From Ignavibacteriota bacterium (lineage in GTDB: Bacteria; Bacteroidota; Ignavibacteria; UBA10030), in assembly GCA_003142475.1 (NCBI GenBank), contig PLMK01000025.1, positions 24,532-88,531 of the forward strand: a DNA stretch of 64,000 nt, read 5' to 3'. Of the stretch, positions 36,082-45,623 are shown piece by piece (the first letter of the stretch is position 1; each line of letters begins with the position of its first letter). Both the position numbers and the translations under genes were made by a program. Under the pieces are notes generated by a model. It worked only from the letters and a program-made list of their open reading frames with translations. It did not search any database and was not told the DNA's origin.

Positions 36082-38874
36082 TTAAGCCTTCCAACCCTGC
36101 ACCCACGCTGTGCCACAGAGTCCGGTGTATGGACAACGCGGACAACTCTTGCTGAGATCGGCGGGCGGCGAGAAAGGAGTCGCTGCGTTATTTATCTCCT
36201 TTAGTATAAGCTCAATGAGTTGTTTGATTTGTTCAAAGCAAGTCACACGTTCTTCAGTATCTTCCCCAAAAACTACCTCACATTCTTTGCCGAGCCGGTT
36301 CTTACCAAGGTAGAGGTACGCGGGAACGATTTCTTCTACCACAGTTTTTGTATGAATGCTATACAACAAAAGATACATCGGCAATTGCAGAGATGTAACC
36401 GCTTCGTTCCAGCTTTCTCGTTCATCAATATGGAGATTGAGCTTGCCGAAATTAATCGGCGGCTTGCTTGGCTTCGGCCCGGTCTTATAATCGAGTATGA
36501 AAATCTTATTGCTGCGCTGCTCAATGCGGTCAAGACGTCCTTCAAACTTTGTCCCTAATGCATGAATCAATATCTTTTCTTCAAGTCCCTTTATAATTAT
36601 TTCGCTTGCCTCAGTCATCGGTTGTTGGTATTCTTTAAGCAGCGTTTCCATTTGCCGCTGAATCTGCCGTTTCAGTAAATATGCTGCTCCCGCTGGTTCA
36701 ACTCCGAATTCCTGCGCGAACAATTCATCCACCACTTTTTTCATGCGTTCAGGCAACAGATCGCGTGTTTCTAATTTTCTTCCTATACATGGTGCAAAAA
36801 AATTATCCAGCACCTCATGAACAAACTTGCCAACCTCCTGACTATCAATATCCTCCGAAGCTTCTTCTTTTTCTTGTAAGCGCATGATGTACCGGTAGTA
36901 AAACTTAATTGGACATTGTAGATACGTGTCTAATGCGCTCGCGCTGTATGTGAATCCTTGTATAATTGAAAGCACATCATCCGATTTAGAAATTGGGAGA
37001 ACGGTTTCATTGGCAAGTTTCACATGATAACGCACTGTCTGAACGTAATTATCGGATGAAAATAAACCATCTCGCTTCTGGCGTTCCCACAGCAATTGCT
37101 CAACGAATCGGCTCTTATCGCTCTCACCGGATTCAGAGAAAAAGAGATGCACGCGATTTGCGCCACGTACGAGTAGGTGAAAATAATACTCGCTCAATTC
37201 ATCCCGATCATGCCGCGTTTCCAATCCTAATTTTTCGCGCAGCTGCTGCGGTAAAAGCATATCGCTGCCGATACCACCGGGCAGGATGTCATCATTCACA
37301 TTTAATAAATATACGTCATCAAAGTGCAGACTGCGCGTTTCTAATAAACCGAGCACTTGCAAACCTCGAAGCGGTGTGCCGGAGAACGGAACATCTTGAA
37401 GAGCTACATATTGTTGAAGGAAGTTAAAATATCCAGAGGCATCGAGAAACGATGCACTTCCAACAAACGATTGTTCCAAGTGCAGAAATACTTTCAGCAG
37501 CGCTTCTGCATAAAGACGAAACAGTGGATGTAGACGAGCGGTGCTTTGTTCGTAGATATAGGTGAGGACTTCAATGACATTATGCGCAAATTCTTTGACC
37601 GATGTAATATTTTCAAGTAGGCGAATGGTTGATGAATGTATTGTGTGAATATGTTTTTTCAACTGCTCCGGCGTAACTTTATTGTCGAATTCTGAAATTG
37701 CAAATGCAACATTCGTAAAGATTTCATCCGACTGCTCTATTTCTTCCAGTGTAATGAGGATTTTAGATTTATCATTCGTCAGCGTAGATTCTATTGCATG
37801 AAAAAGCATACGTGTAACATCTGTGCGTTGATCCAAGCGGATGTTTTTGGTGTACGGATGCAGAATATATTTTATGTACTGTACCGCCGAGTACCGCTCT
37901 CCTTGCTTCGAGCACACTAATTCCATGAGATTGTTCAGAAAACCATAGATCGGTGTGCGCGCCATTGGATATTCAAGCGCAATATTGTATTGTTCTTGCG
38001 GCATCAACGAAAGCGTTTGATGCACAACAGGAAAGAGTGCATCGGCAGTTGGCAGAACAATTACCGAGTGTTCATCGAGCTGTGCGCTACTATCCAATTG
38101 TTTCTTGATAAGCGCCGAAAGTGCAAAGACCTGTCCGTGTGTATCGGATGCTTTGTAGAAATGAATCTCCGGTTCCGGTGTTCCTTCTTCAATTTTATCC
38201 GTTTGAAGCACGAACAACGTATTCGATCGCTTCTGTAAATCCTCAAAAATGATTTGCTCGGCGTGAGTTAGCTTAAATAATCCCGCCACAACGATCTGTG
38301 TGTAACAGCTGAGATCCAGTTCGCTGATATGTTCGGCAACTTCCATGTAACGAACCGCGCGCGTTGTAAAATCTTTTTCCGCTGCAAGTGCGTAGAACTT
38401 TGTGTAATATTCCGCAAGTGAAAAGAGCCGATTGTACGTGAGTGCCGACAGTACTTCTCTCAGCTTTCGTTCGGGAAGATTCGCCAGCCGGAGTTCTTCC
38501 AATTCACCAAACAGCTTTAATCCAATTGGAATGAATGCATCGAGCGTTGTAAAGTAATCGCCGCCCAATCGTTCCTTTAATCCGCTATGCACAAGGTGAA
38601 GCAAAGCGACCGCATCAATCGGTTCCAGATCATGCACGGGCTCCGGATGAAAATGCTGATACAGCGAAAGAATAAATTCATCCACGGAAAATATTTTTGG
38701 AGGAATGATACTACCGCCAGAACGATGAGCAAGTTCTTTCCGCAAGAAATGTGCGGGGCGTTTTCCCGGGAAAACAATTGCACTCGTTGAGAAATCTCTT
38801 CCATGTGAATCAAGAAGAGAGGCAACAGTTTCAATAAGATGATCGGTTGGACCAAGGACAATGCGTTCGCTCAT
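36082..38874 (-). CDS. AddB-like PD-(D/E)XK nuclease subunit with C-terminal Fe-S cysteine cluster
   Basis: 930 aa with no Walker A. ILDYKTG nuclease motif. Four Cys (C...CPRCPYTGLC) at the extreme C-terminus, as in AddB iron-staple domains. Confidence 0.7.
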   Translation of the reverse strand: MSERIVLGPTDHLIETVASLLDSHGRDFSTSAIVFPGKRPAHFLRKELAHRSGGSIIPPKIFSVDEFILSLYQHFHPEPVHDLEPIDAVALLHLVHSGLKERLGGDYFTTLDAFIPIGLKLFGELEELRLANLPERKLREVLSALTYNRLFSLAEYYTKFYALAAEKDFTTRAVRYMEVAEHISELDLSCYTQIVVAGLFKLTHAEQIIFEDLQKRSNTLFVLQTDKIEEGTPEPEIHFYKASDTHGQVFALSALIKKQLDSSAQLDEHSVIVLPTADALFPVVHQTLSLMPQEQYNIALEYPMARTPIYGFLNNLMELVCSKQGERYSAVQYIKYILHPYTKNIRLDQRTDVTRMLFHAIESTLTNDKSKILITLEEIEQSDEIFTNVAFAISEFDNKVTPEQLKKHIHTIHSSTIRLLENITSVKEFAHNVIEVLTYIYEQSTARLHPLFRLYAEALLKVFLHLEQSFVGSASFLDASGYFNFLQQYVALQDVPFSGTPLRGLQVLGLLETRSLHFDDVYLLNVNDDILPGGIGSDMLLPQQLREKLGLETRHDRDELSEYYFHLLVRGANRVHLFFSESGESDKSRFVEQLLWERQKRDGLFSSDNYVQTVRYHVKLANETVLPISKSDDVLSIIQGFTYSASALDTYLQCPIKFYYRYIMRLQEKEEASEDIDSQEVGKFVHEVLDNFFAPCIGRKLETRDLLPERMKKVVDELFAQEFGVEPAGAAYLLKRQIQRQMETLLKEYQQPMTEASEIIIKGLEEKILIHALGTKFEGRLDRIEQRSNKIFILDYKTGPKPSKPPINFGKLNLHIDERESWNEAVTSLQLPMYLLLYSIHTKTVVEEIVPAYLYLGKNRLGKECEVVFGEDTEERVTCFEQIKQLIELILKEINNAATPFSPPADLSKSCPRCPYTGLCGTAWVQGWKA

Positions 38875-41800
38875 GCAACCACCCGCAATTTCTTTCGGTC
38901 CATAAAAGCCAAAACACCGCGAACGGTACGGCCGGGATAAAAGTTTTGAAGAATGTTTATGTACCCTTGCACTTGATCAGTATATCCTTCTTTATCATCT
39001 CCTGTTTTGAAATCAAGAACTGTCACCGTATCCTTATCGACAATAATCCGGTCCATGCGGAAGAGCCGTCCCTCCGGATTAACAAATTCTTGTTCATTCA
39101 TTATTTTTCTGCCTTCAATGTGAACAAAGAACGGCGCGATTTCCGGCGAGTGCAGAAATTCAAGTATTGACGATTTGATGCGCTCCTCATCAGCGGGCTG
39201 CATCCAGCTTCCCGTAACATTCTTTATCGATGATGAGATGAGCATCTCAACGTCCGCATCTGCGAACTCTACTTGCGACAACACATCGTGAATAGCATCA
39301 CCGCGACGGCGTTCATACAGCGCCAGCTTCTCTGATGAAATATTGCTTACTGGCACTCGCACCGACGAATGATACAGAGGCACGGCCGGCTCGATTGATT
39401 GCTTTTGTTTTTCTACTTCAGGTTTTACCGACGGTTCATAGCCGGAAGTCGGTAGGAATTTTGACGGCTCATCTGAATATTCATTCTTTACACCGATTAC
39501 ATACATCTCTTCTTTTGCTCTCGTAAATGCCACGTACAATTTGTTGAGGTCATCTATCGCTCGTTCAATGCGGTGCTGATTGTATATTTCCTGAAGCGTG
39601 TCGTCAAACGCTGCATTTTTTTGAGTAATGTGCACTAACCGTACACCGTCGGCATTTTCTTCGACAAATAAATTATCGGATCGCAATTTAGAATCTACGA
39701 GTAAAACGATGACAACTCGATTGTCTAATCCTTTCGCCTTGTGGATTGTCATCACAGAAACGGCATCCGCACCATGCGGCACCGCGATATTCCAATCTGC
39801 ATCGTCCGCTTCATCATCAGCAAAGGCAAGAAAATCTTTTAGATTATTCTGTCCAATCTCTTCAAAATTATTCATCACATCCAACAGCTTTGCAAGTGCA
39901 CCTTCTTCTTCTGGTGCAATCTCGAACAATCGAAATTGTTTATAGATTTCTGATAAGAGATCGTACATCGGCAAGTAACCAACAACTCTGAAAAGTTCAT
40001 CAAAGTACTGCTTCCAGATATCGACATAACGCAAGCGGAACAATGCATACAGCGGCGCTGGGTGTTCTGTTCTTCGCGCCTGAAGAAGGAACGAGTGAAG
40101 TTCCTCTTGCGCCAACTTCACATTATCAGCAGCAAGTGCGCGATGAAACGTACCGCTCAGTAAAACGGTTGCAAATGCGAGATCATCAATCGGCGAATCG
40201 AGGAAGCGAAGAAGCGCAATGATATCATCGGTGATTGCACGCCCGCGAATATCGAGACTACTGTGCGAAATAAATGGAATATGTTCGCCATTAAGCCATC
40301 CACTGACCGCAACGACATGTTCATTCTTCGGAGTCAGGATTGTGATATCGCCATATCGGTAACCACGCGTGTGGCAATCGTGGACAATTTCTAAAATTTT
40401 CGCGCGTTCCTGTTCTTGTTCTTCATCTTTTTCAAACGAAACAACCTCAACGTATCCTTTCTTCTTATTATTTTCTTCAACCTCTTGTTTGAACATTGAC
40501 AACCCGCTGGCATGTGGTGCGTCGTCATCTATTACTGATGGCACGATGGAATGAAAAACTGTTTTGTTGAAATCGAGAATACGTTCGAAGCTGCGGTAAT
40601 TTGTTTCTAATTCCCGAACTTCCGGCGGTGCTGATGGAAAAACGTTGTTCGTCATGACGTTTTTCATAATGCGCCAATCGGCATGACGGAATGCATAAAT
40701 AGATTGTTTTGTGTCTCCGACAACAAATAAACTTCCCTGCTTTGAAAGCGCTTCGGCAAACAGCGGTTTTATTGCTTCCCACTGCACTGGTGCTGTGTCC
40801 TGAAACTCATCGATGAGATAATGGTAGATGGCATCGCCCAAATAAAAATATACTTGCGGTACAATTTCTTCCGAAATATAATGCAGAAGCGTACGATTGA
40901 CATCGGAAAGATTCACCTGACCGTTGCGCCTCATAATCTGTTCGATAGTGCCCCGAAACAATTTATGTGCTTCGACGTACGGAAGATAGTAGTGATATGC
41001 CTGCTGCACAACATATTCTGCAGCAAGCGAGCTGAACTTCTCCTGCAAGGGCGCAAACCGTGTATTCCATTCTTCCGTTACTTCTTTTTCAGTCTTCGAT
41101 TTGCCGGTTTTCACCGGTTTATTGATGCTTTTCAATTCTATCAGCTTGTCTACTTCTCCGGCTTGAGCAACAGCAGCGACATTTTCAAAATTCTTTGTTG
41201 TCTCCAAACCAGAATCTCGTACAAGTGCATGGAGTTGGTGAAACGTATCAAGAATTTCCTTACGCAATGCGTTCACCGATCTGCCGTTTTCAGAAGAAGG
41301 TAAAATTTCTTTTGATTGTGCGCTTAATGTGTTATACAGATTGCGGACTTCATCGGAGAGTTTTTGAAATGGATTCCAAATATAGCGGGAAGAAGTATTT
41401 TGGCTTTCAACAAGAATATCTGTTAGTTCTTCAAGTAATTGTTGCCTTGACGGATCGGTTGCAAGTTCGCGGACGAATTGTTCAAAAGCCGCATCAAGTA
41501 TTGCGCGGTTGTTCAGTACAATTTCAAGCGTTGGTGAAAAACCAAACTCCAACGCCGAAGCGCGAAACACTCGCGCCATAAAGCTGTCGATCGTTTGCAC
41601 CTGAAATGCCGAGTAATCCTGCAATATCGTTTCAATCAATTCGCCGCACCGAGTGCGAAGGTTCGCTTCATCCATTGAAACGAGAGGGCACAATTGATCA
41701 AGAATATTTTTATTCCCGTGGAATGTTCTCTTCAGATATTCCAGAACACGCTGGCGCATTTCAGCGGCTGCATTCTTGGTGAACGTCATCGCCAGCACAT

Positions 41801-41951
41801 TATTCAGCCGATTGTTCGGGACATGGAGGGACAGCAAGAGCTGCAGAATTTTCAGCGTGAGCGTGTGCGTCTTACCCGATCCTGCAGATGCAGAAACGAT
41901 AGTAAAATTAGGAAATTGAAGTTCGGTATCGTTTAAAAGAATGGAAGCCAC
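38871..41951 (-). CDS. AddA-like UvrD-family helicase with C-terminal PD-(D/E)XK nuclease
   Basis: Walker A SAGSGKTHTL, motif Ia AMTFTKNAAAEM, and a C-terminal VLDFKTG nuclease motif. Overlaps the AddB-like gene by 4 nt. Confidence 0.85.
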   Translation of the reverse strand: MASILLNDTELQFPNFTIVSASAGSGKTHTLTLKILQLLLSLHVPNNRLNNVLAMTFTKNAAAEMRQRVLEYLKRTFHGNKNILDQLCPLVSMDEANLRTRCGELIETILQDYSAFQVQTIDSFMARVFRASALEFGFSPTLEIVLNNRAILDAAFEQFVRELATDPSRQQLLEELTDILVESQNTSSRYIWNPFQKLSDEVRNLYNTLSAQSKEILPSSENGRSVNALRKEILDTFHQLHALVRDSGLETTKNFENVAAVAQAGEVDKLIELKSINKPVKTGKSKTEKEVTEEWNTRFAPLQEKFSSLAAEYVVQQAYHYYLPYVEAHKLFRGTIEQIMRRNGQVNLSDVNRTLLHYISEEIVPQVYFYLGDAIYHYLIDEFQDTAPVQWEAIKPLFAEALSKQGSLFVVGDTKQSIYAFRHADWRIMKNVMTNNVFPSAPPEVRELETNYRSFERILDFNKTVFHSIVPSVIDDDAPHASGLSMFKQEVEENNKKKGYVEVVSFEKDEEQEQERAKILEIVHDCHTRGYRYGDITILTPKNEHVVAVSGWLNGEHIPFISHSSLDIRGRAITDDIIALLRFLDSPIDDLAFATVLLSGTFHRALAADNVKLAQEELHSFLLQARRTEHPAPLYALFRLRYVDIWKQYFDELFRVVGYLPMYDLLSEIYKQFRLFEIAPEEEGALAKLLDVMNNFEEIGQNNLKDFLAFADDEADDADWNIAVPHGADAVSVMTIHKAKGLDNRVVIVLLVDSKLRSDNLFVEENADGVRLVHITQKNAAFDDTLQEIYNQHRIERAIDDLNKLYVAFTRAKEEMYVIGVKNEYSDEPSKFLPTSGYEPSVKPEVEKQKQSIEPAVPLYHSSVRVPVSNISSEKLALYERRRGDAIHDVLSQVEFADADVEMLISSSIKNVTGSWMQPADEERIKSSILEFLHSPEIAPFFVHIEGRKIMNEQEFVNPEGRLFRMDRIIVDKDTVTVLDFKTGDDKEGYTDQVQGYINILQNFYPGRTVRGVLAFMDRKKLRVVA

Positions 41952-41959
41952 AGATTAAT

Positions 41960-42541
41960 TTATTTCTTCTTCTTCGTTTTATATTTTACACTTGGTTCCT
42001 TCATTTGAAATCCGATCTGACGTTTTGGTTTTTCCGGCGGCTGCATTAATTGGCGGATGGCATCGAAGAGATTTTGAATTTCTGAATCATGTTGAATGAT
42101 TTTTGATTCAAGTTCTTTCAATTTTGCAGCAAGTTCTGTATTCGCTGACAGTATTTCCCGCAAGCGAACAAAAGCGCGAACCACAAGAATACTTGCCTTT
42201 ATTGCCGCATCGCTGTTGAGAACCGAAGCAAGCATAACAACGCCATGCTCGGTAAATGCATTGGGGAGGTACCGTCTCCCACCGCGCCCGATTACTTTTG
42301 AGGTTCCAAATTGGAACTTCAAAGAATTCCACTCATCAGGTGTAAGCTGAAAGAGAAAATCTTCCGGGAATCGGTGACGATTTCTTGCAACGGCTTTATT
42401 GAGAATCTTGGTTTGCACTCCATAGATTTCCGCCAAATGAAAATCGATCATCACTTTTTTGCCGCGAATGAGGAAAATTCGTTGTTCGATATGTTCTATT
42501 GGTACAATTGACTTATACCTCGAAAATGTTTTCTTTTTCAC
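41960..42541 (-). CDS. ORF6N-domain DNA-binding protein with C-terminal coiled coil
   Basis: RIFLIRGKKVMIDFHLAEIYGV...LPNAFTEHGVVMLASVL matches the ORF6N (KilA-N-related) domain architecture common in Bacteroidota. Confidence 0.65.
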   Translation of the reverse strand: MKKKTFSRYKSIVPIEHIEQRIFLIRGKKVMIDFHLAEIYGVQTKILNKAVARNRHRFPEDFLFQLTPDEWNSLKFQFGTSKVIGRGGRRYLPNAFTEHGVVMLASVLNSDAAIKASILVVRAFVRLREILSANTELAAKLKELESKIIQHDSEIQNLFDAIRQLMQPPEKPKRQIGFQMKEPSVKYKTKKKK

Positions 42542-42559
42542 TCACTCAGGACTACTTCT

Positions 42560-42796
42560 TTATAGATCCGCTGCCAAGATTAACCATTTTCCCGATATCG
42601 GCAAAATGGTTTGCAACAGGTTCGCCTGCATTTTCACACGATTTTTTGCTTTCTCTAGTGTGTTTTTGAAGTTGTCCCATTTACTGTACCCAAAAATATT
42701 TTGCAATTCCCTTGCGCTCCAGCATTCAATGCCGTTAAAGATATAGCATGTGTTTTCAAATTGCGCAAATAATTCTTCAATCTGCTTTTTTTTCAT
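42560..42796 (-). pseudogene. N-terminal fragment of a DinD / Bro-N-family (DNA-damage-inducible protein D-like) gene
   Basis: ELFAQFENTCYIFNGIECWSARELQNIFGYSKWDNFKNTLEKAK parallels the E. coli DinD N-terminus (...EFWSARDLAPLLGYRDWRNFQKVIARA). The frame ends after ~78 aa against ~270 aa expected. Confidence 0.5.
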
Positions 42797-42926
42797 AGCG
42801 TTCTTGCTTTACTTCCCCATCGCCTTTCTCCTAATCATTTATTTTACCAACTCTGCCCAGACAAAATGAGCAATGTTTTCGTGTGTCTTTCGGTCAAGAA
42901 TGGAATTCAAATGTGATTCTAATAAA

Positions 42927-43496
42927 TTATTTTCTCTGATCTGGATTCTCGCTGTCATAAAACCATTTTATTGGATTGTCGATAATATAATCGCGGATGT
43001 TTTGTGAATCTCTTTCATCATTAATGATGTGCTCATAAAATCGTGGTTGCCAGCGAAATTCATACCAACCATTACGCCGACACTCTGTAGTCACGGCAGC
43101 TTTGAAGGTTCGTATTACCACCGACAATGTTCCTCTTTTCGGCGAAATCCTTGTAGAGACGTTCAATTGAACGTCTCTACCATTTGGATTATTATCCATT
43201 TCACCCGATTGAACGTCTCTACGATTATCATCTATTATTATGATTCCGTGTATGTGATTTGGCATTATGACAAACTCATCCAATTCAATATTATGGAAAT
43301 GCTTCGGTATTTCTTCCCAGCAGCTTTTTACGATCCGACCAATGGGTGATAACTCGACATCCTCCTCTATTACCGTGCCAAATAGACATTTATGTTCATC
43401 TGTACAAATCGTTACAAAATATTCGCCTGGCAGGGAATAATCATATTCTTTCAGCCGTATCGATTCAATTCGAAATGTGTTTTTATATAACGTCAT
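42927..43496 (-). CDS. IS200/IS605-family HUH (Y1) transposase, REP-associated (RayT-like)
   Basis: HUH motif PNHIHGIII and a C-terminal WQPRFYEHII Tyr motif. Start placed at MTLYK (ATG at 43494-43496). The ORF stays open to 43544 through the upstream palindrome. Confidence 0.75.
   Translation of the reverse strand: MTLYKNTFRIESIRLKEYDYSLPGEYFVTICTDEHKCLFGTVIEEDVELSPIGRIVKSCWEEIPKHFHNIELDEFVIMPNHIHGIIIIDDNRRDVQSGEMDNNPNGRDVQLNVSTRISPKRGTLSVVIRTFKAAVTTECRRNGWYEFRWQPRFYEHIINDERDSQNIRDYIIDNPIKWFYDSENPDQRK
43153..43180. repeat. 28-bp perfect palindrome GTAGAGACGTTCAATTGAACGTCTCTAC inside the transposase ORF
   Basis: Verified base by base. Read in-frame it encodes NGRDVQLNVSTR. Confidence 0.8.
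43209..43222. repeat. extra half-site TTGAACGTCTCTAC (direct repeat of right palindrome arm)
   Basis: Identical 14 nt lying 29 nt from the full palindrome. It encodes ..RRDVQS. Confidence 0.6.
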
Positions 43497-43503
43497 ATTA
43501 TCT

Positions 43504-43531
43504 GTAGAGACGTAATATATTACGTCTCTAC
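43504..43531. repeat. 28-bp perfect palindrome GTAGAGACGTAATATATTACGTCTCTAC immediately 5' of the transposase start
   Basis: Same 10-bp arms (GTAGAGACGT/ACGTCTCTAC) and the same outer flanks (tg...ccat) as 43153-43180. It lies 7 nt upstream of the ATG. Confidence 0.8.
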
Positions 43532-43540
43532 CATGTAATA

Positions 43541-43789
43541 TCATTTCCCCATCAACTTCAACACAATCCCATCGATCTCCCCCATCTGTTCAATTGTAAA
43601 TGCGAGTATGTTGCAAATCTGCATAAACGTTTCTTGTTCCTGATAACTGAGCGTATTTACTTTTCGGTCACGGCGGGAGCGAAGCCATTTCTCTAATACT
43701 TGATAACCGCCGATTTCATATTTATGACATAAATATTTATTGAGCACTGGGGAAATTAAAACCAAGCAATTTCGCAATTGCATTGCCAA
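43541..43789 (-). pseudogene. C-terminal relic resembling the end of type IIG restriction-modification / BREX PglX-like N6-adenine methyltransferases
   Basis: HKYEIGGYQVLEKWLRSRRDRKVNTLSYQEQETFMQICNILAFTIEQMGEID fits the recalled C-terminal motif of MmeI-family/PglX proteins (..IGGYQVL.KWLK.R.GR.LS..DI.HYQKI..AL.ETI.LM.EID). Only 82 aa are present, and they overlap the 3' end of the pentapeptide gene in another frame. Confidence 0.4.
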
Positions 43790-45623
43790 TATTTACAATC
43801 TTGTCGAAGTTTTGAATGCCATAATTAGCAGCTTTTCCTAATGCACCTAAAACTGTCTTGGTTCTTAATCTAAGTTGTTCATTATCCCCTTTTTCTTTTT
43901 GCTCGATTAATATGTTTTTAATCTCTTCTTTAAGATGATCTATTTCAGCTTGGTGAGCTTTAGATTTAATGTTATCTAATTCGTCTGACAAGCTCGCCAA
44001 TTCAATCCCTACCTTAATATTATTTTCCATCTCAACATTCATTTCTTGATTTGAACTCTGTTGATTGTATATATTAATTGAAGCTGGGGGCTTGTTTTCT
44101 TTTAGAATAATTAAGTTGCGAAACCATTCTAGATCTCTTTTATATTCGGCTATTTGCATTTTAGATATTTCTAATGCGGTTTTATCTCGCCTTTGTTCAT
44201 CAATTAGACCATACAATATTCTTTTCCGAACTATAATATGTTCATCTCGATAATTCGTAATGAAGGATTCTTTTTGAATTGCACTCAATTTATTGTTTCT
44301 GAATTCATAGTTTATTTGATCAAATGGCTTAAATATATTTTCGATATAGTTTTGAAAAGTAACAGCAATGATATCTTTTTTCGTCTCATCTTTTGTAAGG
44401 AGGCTGAGCTTTGATTTTTCACCTTGCGGTTCAGTTGCGATGTCTACATTAATATCTTCGGTTGATCGTATATAATCTTTAAAGAAATTTATATAATTCA
44501 AGATGCCAGTTCGCACCTCAATTGGCAAGTCTAACAAGAAATTCCATTTATGAAATTGTTGAAAATAATCTATAAGGGTAAAATTTATATTGTCTTTATC
44601 TCCAAAATCTCCAGTTAATGGAATACGGGAATTAATTTTAGGAATAATTCTTGTCATCCCTGCTTCTTGAAACTCTTCATAATCAGTATATATAAACTTT
44701 GTCTTTGCACAAGTCTTGGAGTCAATGGAAATATTGTCGGAATAAATAGATTTGAGAACTGCACCTGTGAAATCACAGTTTATGAGAGATTTATTTGAAA
44801 AATCACAAAATATTAAAACGGAGTTTTTAAAGGAATAATTATGAAAGTTAATTATATCTTTAAAATTTGTTGAATGCAAAATTGTTCCATCAAGGTTAAT
44901 TCCAGAACCCTTAATGTTTTTCAGTGATGCAATCACTGTCTTGTTAAACACCACCTCATCTAAAAGTTTTGCATTCAAGAATAACAGTTGTCCGCGAAAC
45001 TCTGAATTGCTAAAATCAAGTTTCTTGTGAAATTCTGTTTTTGGGAAATCAGCATTCTTATAAAAAATACTGCTTTGAAAAACAACATCGTCAAGGAAAC
45101 AACGATCTTGAAAAACAGCGTTCTCGTGAAACTTACACCCATGAAATACTATTTTGTTTAAGACTTTATCCCCGATAAAAATTAACTTATTAAATTCTGT
45201 TCCAACGAATGAAACGCTATTATGAAATTTTGCACCTTGGAAGAAAGCTATACCTTTAAAGTTGGTCTTATGCGCAAACATGCCATTCTTAAAGAATGCA
45301 TTTTCGAAATCCGCCATGTCAGTGAATGTCGCCCAACGTATATCAACCATTTTATTAAACACTTTGTACTTTAAACTAATCTTAGGGAAAACAAATCCTC
45401 TGAAATTATATTCCATCATCTTGTTATTATTTTCTATCTGCTCTATAAGCAGATTAAAAGCACTATCGAATTGATTTGTCTTTTTGGAAATGTTCTCCGA
45501 ATGAAATATACAATAGGTATCATCTTCTAGCGACCGAAGTCCGCAAGAGAGGAGTTCTCCATTATTATCCTTCTTTTTAAAATTACACTTTCTTTGTGTT
45601 GACACCTTCAATTTATCAATCAT
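43737..45623 (-). CDS. pentapeptide-repeat protein with Cys-rich N-terminal motif and long C-terminal coiled coil
   Basis: About 55 consecutive pentapeptide repeats with a central Phe/Leu (ADFEN AFFKN GMFAH KTNFK GIAFF QGAKF ...). The N-terminus carries C-x16-C-x11-C-x2-H. The C-terminal ~230 aa are a charged coiled coil. The region is very AT-rich. Confidence 0.8.
   Translation of the reverse strand: MIDKLKVSTQRKCNFKKKDNNGELLSCGLRSLEDDTYCIFHSENISKKTNQFDSAFNLLIEQIENNNKMMEYNFRGFVFPKISLKYKVFNKMVDIRWATFTDMADFENAFFKNGMFAHKTNFKGIAFFQGAKFHNSVSFVGTEFNKLIFIGDKVLNKIVFHGCKFHENAVFQDRCFLDDVVFQSSIFYKNADFPKTEFHKKLDFSNSEFRGQLLFLNAKLLDEVVFNKTVIASLKNIKGSGINLDGTILHSTNFKDIINFHNYSFKNSVLIFCDFSNKSLINCDFTGAVLKSIYSDNISIDSKTCAKTKFIYTDYEEFQEAGMTRIIPKINSRIPLTGDFGDKDNINFTLIDYFQQFHKWNFLLDLPIEVRTGILNYINFFKDYIRSTEDINVDIATEPQGEKSKLSLLTKDETKKDIIAVTFQNYIENIFKPFDQINYEFRNNKLSAIQKESFITNYRDEHIIVRKRILYGLIDEQRRDKTALEISKMQIAEYKRDLEWFRNLIILKENKPPASINIYNQQSSNQEMNVEMENNIKVGIELASLSDELDNIKSKAHQAEIDHLKEEIKNILIEQKEKGDNEQLRLRTKTVLGALGKAANYGIQNFDKIVNIGNAIAKLLGFNFPSAQ

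Follow-up and report, generated by a model that had tools for sequence, protein, structure and literature searches.

The closest described relatives of the locus considered here belong to TnpA-Y1 subclass 2.4, defined by Quentin, Siguier, Chandler and Fichant (2018, BMC Genomics 19:475, PMC6006769) and equivalent to RAYT group 4 of Bertels et al. (2017). Members of this subclass carry the motifs NH[IFV]H, WQ and YIxNNP, have a median length of 194 amino acids (aa) and a median HuH-Y distance of 88 aa, and contain a highly variable insert with short DNA repeats between beta3 and alphaC (PMC6006769). The subclass hallmark is the presence of "double-foot" repetitive extragenic palindromes (REPs; GT[AG]G ... 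C[TC]AC) in frame between HuH and Y, and Quentin et al. suggested that the insert is a peripheral addition by which the protein is hardly affected (PMC6006769). Group 4 genes are common in cyanobacteria, Chlorobia and Caldilineae, and their flanking 16-mers are only modestly repeated (Bertels et al., 2017); in-frame REPs have also been reported in other genes, and REPtrons in species without REP families (Di Nocera et al., 2013). Here, a RayT/TnpA-REP gene and its two palindromes are described in a 64,000-nucleotide (nt) stretch of DNA from an Ignavibacteriota bacterium (GenBank assembly GCA_003142475.1, contig PLMK01000025.1, positions 24,532 to 88,531), referred to as the window and numbered from its first nucleotide. 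A preliminary description of this DNA considered a REP within the open reading frame (ORF) of its own enzyme to be unusual, a judgement that does not hold given that in-frame REPs typify subclass 2.4 (Quentin et al., 2018, PMC6006769). The in-frame REP is thus an already published hallmark; what goes beyond the 2018 description is the constraint on the in-gene REP at the DNA level, and no subsequent study of the in-gene REP was uncovered by searching the literature. The locus very probably represents a single-copy domesticated HUH/Tyr single-stranded DNA (ssDNA) transposase gene accompanied by cognate double-foot REP copies, of which the in-gene copy is probably actively maintained.

The gene occupies positions 42927..43496 of the minus strand and, judged from the list of ORFs, the homologues, and the profile and Foldseek matches, the likely true ORF comprises 189 codons plus a stop and begins MTLYK. 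A search with the protein returned 5084 relatives, several of them labelled in their source as "REP element-mobilizing transposase RayT"; the NCBIfam model REP_Tyr_transpos (NF047646) is matched with an E value of 1e-14 (54.5 bits), and a precomputed match to PF01797 is present on some homologues. When a profile of the alignment was compared with the PDB, Escherichia coli TnpA-REP (4ER8) was recovered with an E value of 6.4e-7, the aligned parts being only the HUH region and the region from WQ to the Y motif. The AlphaFold model (mean predicted local distance difference test score [pLDDT] 80.9) has a strand at residues 81-88, a segment of pLDDT <50 at residues 95-116 and a helix from residue 124, and its best Foldseek match is 4er8_A (E 3.2e-7, TM 0.54/0.61), followed by the TnpA proteins of ISDra2 and IS608. 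Profile and structure therefore agree on an HUH/Tyr fold like that of TnpA-REP or IS608 TnpA, and the initial naming of the gene product as a RayT-like HUH transposase is upheld by the profile, 4ER8 and Foldseek matches.

The individual motifs are those of subclass 2.4. The HUH motif NHIH (N80-H81-I82-H83; 43248..43259, minus strand) fits NH[IFV]H, and H81 and H83 are invariant across the 47 closest homologues. W149-Q150 (43047..43052, minus strand), part of WQxRFYEH, aligns in the hidden Markov model (HMM) comparison with 4ER8 to the W94-Q95 region of E. coli TnpA-REP, which contacts the GTAG guide (residue roles according to Quentin et al., 2018, PMC6006769). The Tyr motif YIIDNP (42972..42989, minus strand), aligned with YIYINP of 4ER8 and comparable to the subclass motif YIxNNP, includes the putative catalytic Tyr, Y170 (42987-42989); W149 and Y170 are invariant in the homologue alignment, where the family consensus at the latter motif is YIINNP. 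H83 and Y170 are 87 residues apart. The window gene and subclass 2.4 are alike in motifs, in length (~190 aa), in HuH-Y spacing (~88 aa), in the variable, repeat-bearing insert, in the possession of both flanking and in-frame double-foot REPs and in low copy number, and the distribution of the subclass (Bacteroidetes, cyanobacteria and scattered phyla) fits that of the window homologues. The differences, namely D in place of the consensus N in YIIDNP, N as the counterpart of E. coli R104 and a flanking REP on the upstream side only, include nothing essential. Since motifs, architecture and the taxonomic spread of the homologues all fit, the locus is very probably a subclass 2.4 REPtron, and its product is, on the basis of its sequence, a RayT-like HUH/Tyr enzyme.

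Two perfect 28-bp palindromes, both of the form GTAGAGACGT-N8-ACGTCTCTAC and both evident from the sequence, from folding and from an inverted-repeat scan, are associated with the gene. The internal one, GTAGAGACGTTCAATTGAACGTCTCTAC (43153..43180), encodes (G)RDVQLNVST, and the resulting peptide NGRDVQLNVSTR is located between NHIH and YIIDNP; the upstream one, GTAGAGACGTAATATATTACGTCTCTAC (43504..43531), ends 7 nt from the ATG. Both copies have GTAG as their 5' foot, and their symmetry places it on both strands, such that a double-foot REP (5' GT[AG]G ... C[TC]AC 3') is present both beside the gene and in frame within it. The coordinates and coding position originally assigned to the two palindromes were borne out, as was the placement of the upstream copy 7 nt before the MTLYK ATG inside a frame open from 43544; of the outer flanks tg...ccat that they were said to share, only t...cat (plus strand) is common to both. 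An independent inverted-repeat scan of the 64 kb detected only these two as perfect with 14-nt arms, shuffled windows reaching at most 12 nt, and as ssDNA they fold with energies of -12.0 and -11.3 kcal/mol (z ~ -7). A chance origin of the palindromes is rejected. Exact matches to the 10-mer GTAGAGACGT number five in the window, corresponding to the four arms and a half-site at 43213-43222. On sequence grounds, the two palindromes are REP-type hairpins with GTAG feet, such as are associated with the RayT family. The internal one falls within the segment of pLDDT <50 at residues 95-116, and in the model it is translated as a low-confidence, probably disordered peptide within the loop that links the HUH strand to the helix following it.

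A hairpin upstream of the gene, together with a fold common to IS608 and ISDra2 TnpA, would also be expected of a decaying autonomous insertion sequence (IS) of the IS200/IS605 type, with the palindromes representing its left- and right-end hairpins. IS200/IS605 TnpA proteins indeed share with the window gene the catalytic fold, gene-adjacent hairpins and, possibly, a hairpin that covers the translation start. However, IS200 elements are multi-copy, have hairpins at both ends, use the Tyr motif Y---Q and have no hairpin in the coding sequence, whereas the Tyr motif here is Y---NP (class 2), neither a downstream hairpin nor tnpB is present, and the gene is single-copy and has the same chromosomal context in 6/6 places shown among 18 contigs carrying it. 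A decaying element of this type is therefore very improbable, and an active IS200-type element can be rejected, Y---Q, hairpins at two ends and multiple copies all being missing.

Evidence that the in-gene copy is maintained comes from six close homologues, aligned as DNA, that share 69-95% nucleotide identity over the ORF. All six relatives have the same internal 28-mer, which is invariant at 28/28 columns and hence at 9/9 third positions. In the remainder of the ORF, the share of columns without variation is 55% (of 500) overall and 23% among the 167 third positions, and no unbroken stretch of such columns exceeds 10 nt. The upstream copy, which has the same arms as the internal copy and a different centre, is less well preserved: it is perfect in L087, has one mismatch in L088 and three in L089, has another centre in L091 and is lost in L092. 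Because the two centres stay different, the conservation of the internal copy does not result from homogenization with its neighbour. The in-gene copy is therefore probably maintained at the level of DNA.

A broader comparison was made with 80 homologous loci, the best-scoring among the matches listed, taken from contigs with one genome per species and drawn from cyanobacteria, Bacteroidota, Ignavibacteria, Chloroflexota, Planctomycetota, Nitrospirota, proteobacteria, candidate phyla radiation (CPR) bacteria and other groups; the count includes the window and omits L077, in which the HUH motif was not recognizable. An internal palindrome was scored when perfect, with an arm of at least 8 nt and lying no more than 420 nt after the HUH motif. 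By this measure 66/80 loci possess one, with a GT[AG]G foot in 40 of those 66, and arms of at least 10 nt occur in 58/79 loci compared to 3/395 shuffles (59 distinct sequences). Palindromes with the same arms are found just upstream or downstream of the gene in many loci, and the number of nucleotides shared by internal and flanking palindromes has a median of 10 within a locus and 5 between loci. For 40 pairs of greater divergence, identity is 85% in palindrome columns, in comparison to 68% overall and 52% at third positions, and the differences that do occur are paired and preserve the palindrome (e.g., GAGAC/GTCTC versus GGGAC/GTCCC). This covariation of the arms costs amino acids, VST becoming VPT alongside a silent change of AGA to AGG.

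The same comparison bears on whether GRDVQLNVST might be an ordinary conserved, functional peptide motif, of which the palindromic DNA is a by-product. R107, D108, V113 and T115 are near-invariant in the 47 closest homologues, as such a motif would require, but other homologues read the palindrome in the other frame (VETLHATSLQ versus RRDVACNVST) or, where the centre is of odd length, switch frame mid-way (VETLHCNVST). Palindromes of even length are read in the two phases by 19 and 36 loci, and those of odd length by 10 and 1, while the phase that would turn GTAG into a TAG stop is used in 0 of the 66 palindrome-bearing loci. Because both stop-free frames are used, it is the nucleotide sequence and not the peptide that is conserved. 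The arms covary despite amino-acid changes, third positions are fully conserved and the segment has a pLDDT of <50, leaving a peptide motif hardly credible; a conserved peptide domain is effectively refuted by the frame switching, arm covariation and third-position conservation. The comparison with homologues, which the preliminary description had proposed as a check, hence confirms that the segment is no ordinary peptide domain, with palindromic DNA being carried there by homologues in two frames. A side observation concerns two related Nostoc metagenome-assembled genomes (MAGs): the RayT ORF of L055 has an in-frame stop and no perfect internal palindrome (loop PVGAQHCSAL), and its relative L042 has an intact RayT and has kept the palindrome (PVGAQHCCAL). 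From this one case there is a hint that death of the gene is followed by decay of the palindrome.

Quentin et al. (2018) viewed the insert in a manner that would make the in-gene REP a neutral passenger, which inserted once into its own transposase, in a surface loop that is permissive, and is tolerated there without function. The segment of pLDDT <50 does fit a disordered peripheral loop, the loop is highly variable in length and contains repeats, and in-frame REPs are found in many unrelated genes (Di Nocera et al., 2013). Furthermore, homologues without any insert exist (e.g., L063, L035, L041 and L080), and because the segment is wholly missing from these it represents an insertion in a permissive loop. 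However, neutrality is difficult to reconcile with invariance at 28/28 positions and 9/9 third positions, versus 23% elsewhere, in the same relatives in which the extragenic upstream copy decays, or with a palindrome at the same site in 66/80 loci across phyla, with compensatory changes. The neutral passenger is thus unlikely, albeit with an appreciable residual chance. The earlier suggestion of a tolerated in-frame insertion consequently stands as regards insertion into a permissive loop, the segment being missing from some homologues, and fails as regards mere tolerance, which is at odds with the 28/28 invariance. From the sequence comparisons, the in-gene copy would appear not to be simply a neutral passenger.

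A mechanism can be proposed by analogy with the TnpA-REP systems of E. coli, S. maltophilia and Marinomonas. The enzyme would bind the GTAG-footed hairpin extruded on ssDNA and would cleave and rejoin the DNA beside the hairpin. The in-gene palindrome may be kept perfect either through a role in cis, as a protected resident copy or binding site that possibly damps the gene's own expression, or through renewal by the enzyme. It is conceivable, although somewhat less than evenly probable, that the in-gene REP is a selected cis element needed by the system, acting as a protected master copy that keeps enzyme and repeats matched or as an operator-like hairpin by which the enzyme would sense or restrict its own gene. 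Any one specific function of the in-gene copy, such as the autoregulation raised in the preliminary description, is on the unlikely side.

Regulation at the RNA level has also to be considered, in which the upstream hairpin would occlude the ribosome-binding region and the internal one would stall translation or control decay, as with IS200 tnpA. The leader stem-loops of IS200 limit tnpA expression, and the analogy with IS200 appears in the REP literature; moreover, the upstream palindrome immediately precedes the start codon and both palindromes form strong stems. Nevertheless, the palindromes are perfect including their centres, and are symmetric on both strands. In imperfect palindromes, 16 mismatches are of the G.T type versus 20 of the A.C type (a small sample), which gives no sign of a sense-strand wobble bias. 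A scan of 42000-44500 against Rfam at E <=1 yielded no match, and a sigma-70 promoter scan placed no promoter upstream of the hairpin; this promoter and terminator scan was at background and is uninformative with respect to transcription of the upstream copy, the sole "terminator" called being the internal palindrome on the opposite strand. An RNA-level regulator is consequently improbable, more so than a neutral passenger; it is least improbable for the copy 7 nt from the ATG.

The loop that harbours the internal REP is also the site of arm duplications. The preliminary description had recognized a 14-nt half-site beyond the internal palindrome; an additional arm copy is indeed present, although it measures 15 nt (43208-43222) and is no separate site, constituting instead the start of an in-frame tandem duplication of 42 nt (14 codons; 43181..43222, minus strand) that opens with this second left arm, GTAGAGACGTTCAAT, as seen from the aligned close relatives and Tandem Repeats Finder (TRF). 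In the alignment, L091 and L092 have no extra 42-nt unit, the window has one and L087, L088 and L089 have two; TRF run on L087 gave a period of 42 with 2.5 copies and 91% matches, and P0126, from the 90% cluster, has two units. TRF reported nothing in the window region, because only ~1.4 units are present there. Pairing of the additional left arm with the only right arm allows an alternative fold of -18.3 kcal/mol. Arm-bearing tandem repeats recur in the post-HUH loop of L028, L034, L039, L040, L044 and L050, and they agree with the "short repeats" of Quentin et al. (2018). The same loop contains long in-frame arrays in many homologues, with one palindrome arm present in up to ~7 units in L028, as well as simple repeats such as (GNGGG)n in L076 and (GATST)n in L007. 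The arm duplications may most simply be by-products of slippage promoted by the hairpin or of hairpin cleavage and rejoining.

The dispersal of this type of palindrome was assessed in metagenomes by scanning for the same arms with any 8-nt centre, and the counts that follow are among the matches listed. At least 83 matches in at least 80 loci were obtained, four of them within RayT ORFs and two less than 400 nt from a RayT gene; 46/52 evaluable matches had no RayT homologue within at least 700 nt, and 31 lay too near a contig end to judge. Repeated copies were found on several contigs of one metagenome sample. Because copies lie away from RayT, some organisms have a genuinely dispersed REP family of this palindrome type. 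In sample Ga0272440, 11 contigs carry the palindrome (L095, L115, L128, L131, L133, L137, L140, L142, L149, L156 and L158), two copies being present in each of L128, L131 and L137. These copies are nearly all GTAGAGACGTAGCATGCTACGTCTCTAC, with one copy each in L128 and L158 off by one centre base, which points to a source organism with a high-copy double-foot REP family. Of the two usable frames, one would encounter a TAG stop in the centre AGCATGCT, a possible reason for the frequency of TGCATGCA in in-gene copies. The exact upstream 28-mer including its centre (GTAGAGACGTAATATATTACGTCTCTAC) also occurs at 89-116 of L160, a metagenome contig of 1 kb that is unrelated and lacks a RayT gene.

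The TnpA-REP/RayT protein of E. coli (YafM, subclass 2.2, 4ER8) has the HUH/Tyr fold and the motifs WQxRF(W/Y)EH and YIxxNP in common with the window protein, to which it is ~21% identical over the Foldseek structural alignment. It is likewise encoded by a single-copy domesticated gene situated between its REPs, and recognizes a GTAG-footed ssDNA hairpin. In contrast to the perfect, double-foot REPs of the window, E. coli REPs are imperfect, bulged, single-foot and extragenic, and number in the hundreds; unlike the window gene, the E. coli gene has no internal REP and has a short HUH-to-helix linker. The intragenic GTAG and CGTC REPs of uvrA, uvrB and recB (Di Nocera et al., 2013) resemble the internal REP in being read through in frame, adding 10-30 residues. 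However, they are lineage-specific and occupy varied sites in unrelated genes, whereas here the REP is in the gene for the cognate enzyme and at one site across phyla.

Several observations weigh against a maintained in-gene REP with a cognate enzyme. The invariance among close relatives could stem from renewal driven by the enzyme and not from selection at the level of the host. A perfect internal palindrome is missing from 14/80 homologous loci, some of which are the insert-free loci noted above, and because of these homologues it is not essential to the protein. No downstream REP is present, and a search for GTAGAGACGT-N8-ACGTCTCTAC with up to two mismatches located no third copy in the 64-kb window (0 in 100 dinucleotide shuffles). 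More than 1 kb from the gene, the flanks of 66 other loci, totalling 808 kb, hold just 12 arm copies, and for the source genome a family of dispersed REPs is only hypothetical. The protein falls short of curated cutoffs for both Pfam PF01797 Y1_Tnp (20.9 versus 23 bits) and NF047646 (54.5 versus 80 bits). R104 of E. coli TnpA-REP is a GTAG contact and the residue is usually R within subclass 2.4 (Quentin et al., 2018, PMC6006769), yet its counterpart in the HMM alignment to 4ER8 is N159 (43020-43022, minus strand) in the window and varies among N, K and H in the closest relatives, whose palindromes nevertheless retain the GTAG foot. As this residue is replaced and variable, recognition of GTAG may be altered or relaxed. 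Finally, a biochemical test of any subclass 2.4 enzyme was not found in the literature searched.

Whether the upstream palindrome is also translated depends on the position of the start codon. The frame stays open from an ATG at 43544, a 205-aa form is produced by gene callers and similar extensions are seen in P0032 and P0043, which would make the upstream palindrome protein-coding as well (MILHGRDVIYYVSTDN...). However, MTL[YF]K is the start in most homologues, and the spacer that separates this ATG from the upstream palindrome measures 7, 8 or 9 nt in the window, L087 and L091, shifting by 1-2 nt between close relatives. The upstream region of these relatives is gapped and variable, with the ORF aligning from the ATG onward. 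Upstream palindromes of other loci contain in-frame stops, and the N-terminal extensions differ and are inconsistent even among cluster members at least 90% identical. The MTL[YF]K starts, the variable spacer, the in-frame stops and the differing extensions indicate that the ORF most likely starts at 43496, as judged from these alignments, with the upstream palindrome non-coding. Initiation at 43544, one option raised in the preliminary description, is quite improbable on account of the 7/8/9-nt spacer and of conservation that begins at MTLYK, and the stretch 43497..43544 (minus strand) is probably a non-coding leader or promoter region in view of the variable spacer and extensions. On the opposite strand, a 106-aa ORF at 43029-43349 (plus strand) includes CRDVQLNVST because the palindrome reads alike on both strands, and is a mirror artefact.

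Several other genes lie around the RayT gene. Directly upstream, an 82-aa ORF (43541-43789, minus strand) overlaps the 3' end of a pentapeptide gene and shows a similarity to Type ISP restriction-modification enzymes (PF18135, E 0.004) that is confined to their extreme C-terminus; a 93-aa Type_ISP_C ORF is also found directly upstream of the RayT homologue of L092 (1250-1531), the context of which is otherwise different. A regular partnership of this ORF with RayT was rejected, since tblastn matched only the same-species loci L081-L086 among L001-L092. The product of the overlapping gene (43737-45623, minus strand) is 628 aa long; pentapeptide repeats are found in its N-terminal part, and its long C-terminal half is charged and matches no family. 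Immediately downstream of RayT are a small ORF with a weak Bro-N match (42560-42796, minus strand) and an ORF for an ORF6N-domain protein (41960-42541, minus strand; E 3e-31) of 193 aa, or 163 aa in some same-species contigs (L082 and L086), both domains being phage-type DNA-binding modules. These are adjoined by an AddAB-like pair (36082-41951, minus strand), in which a 1026-aa helicase of the UvrD type is accompanied by a 930-aa PD-(D/E)XK nuclease protein; in L087, too, the RayT gene is followed by this pair.

Because in-gene REPs are already documented as the hallmark of a RayT subclass, a confident annotation of the locus is possible, and palindromic loci of this kind explain spurious mirror ORFs and over-long gene calls in their vicinity. 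Should the in-gene REP prove to be a selected cis element, selection on the symmetry of the DNA would override selection on the encoded peptide, and the arm duplications would be traces left by the enzyme's action on the gene that encodes it. With enzyme and substrate sharing one short gene, subclass 2.4 is a convenient natural system in which to study the action of RayT on REPs in vivo.

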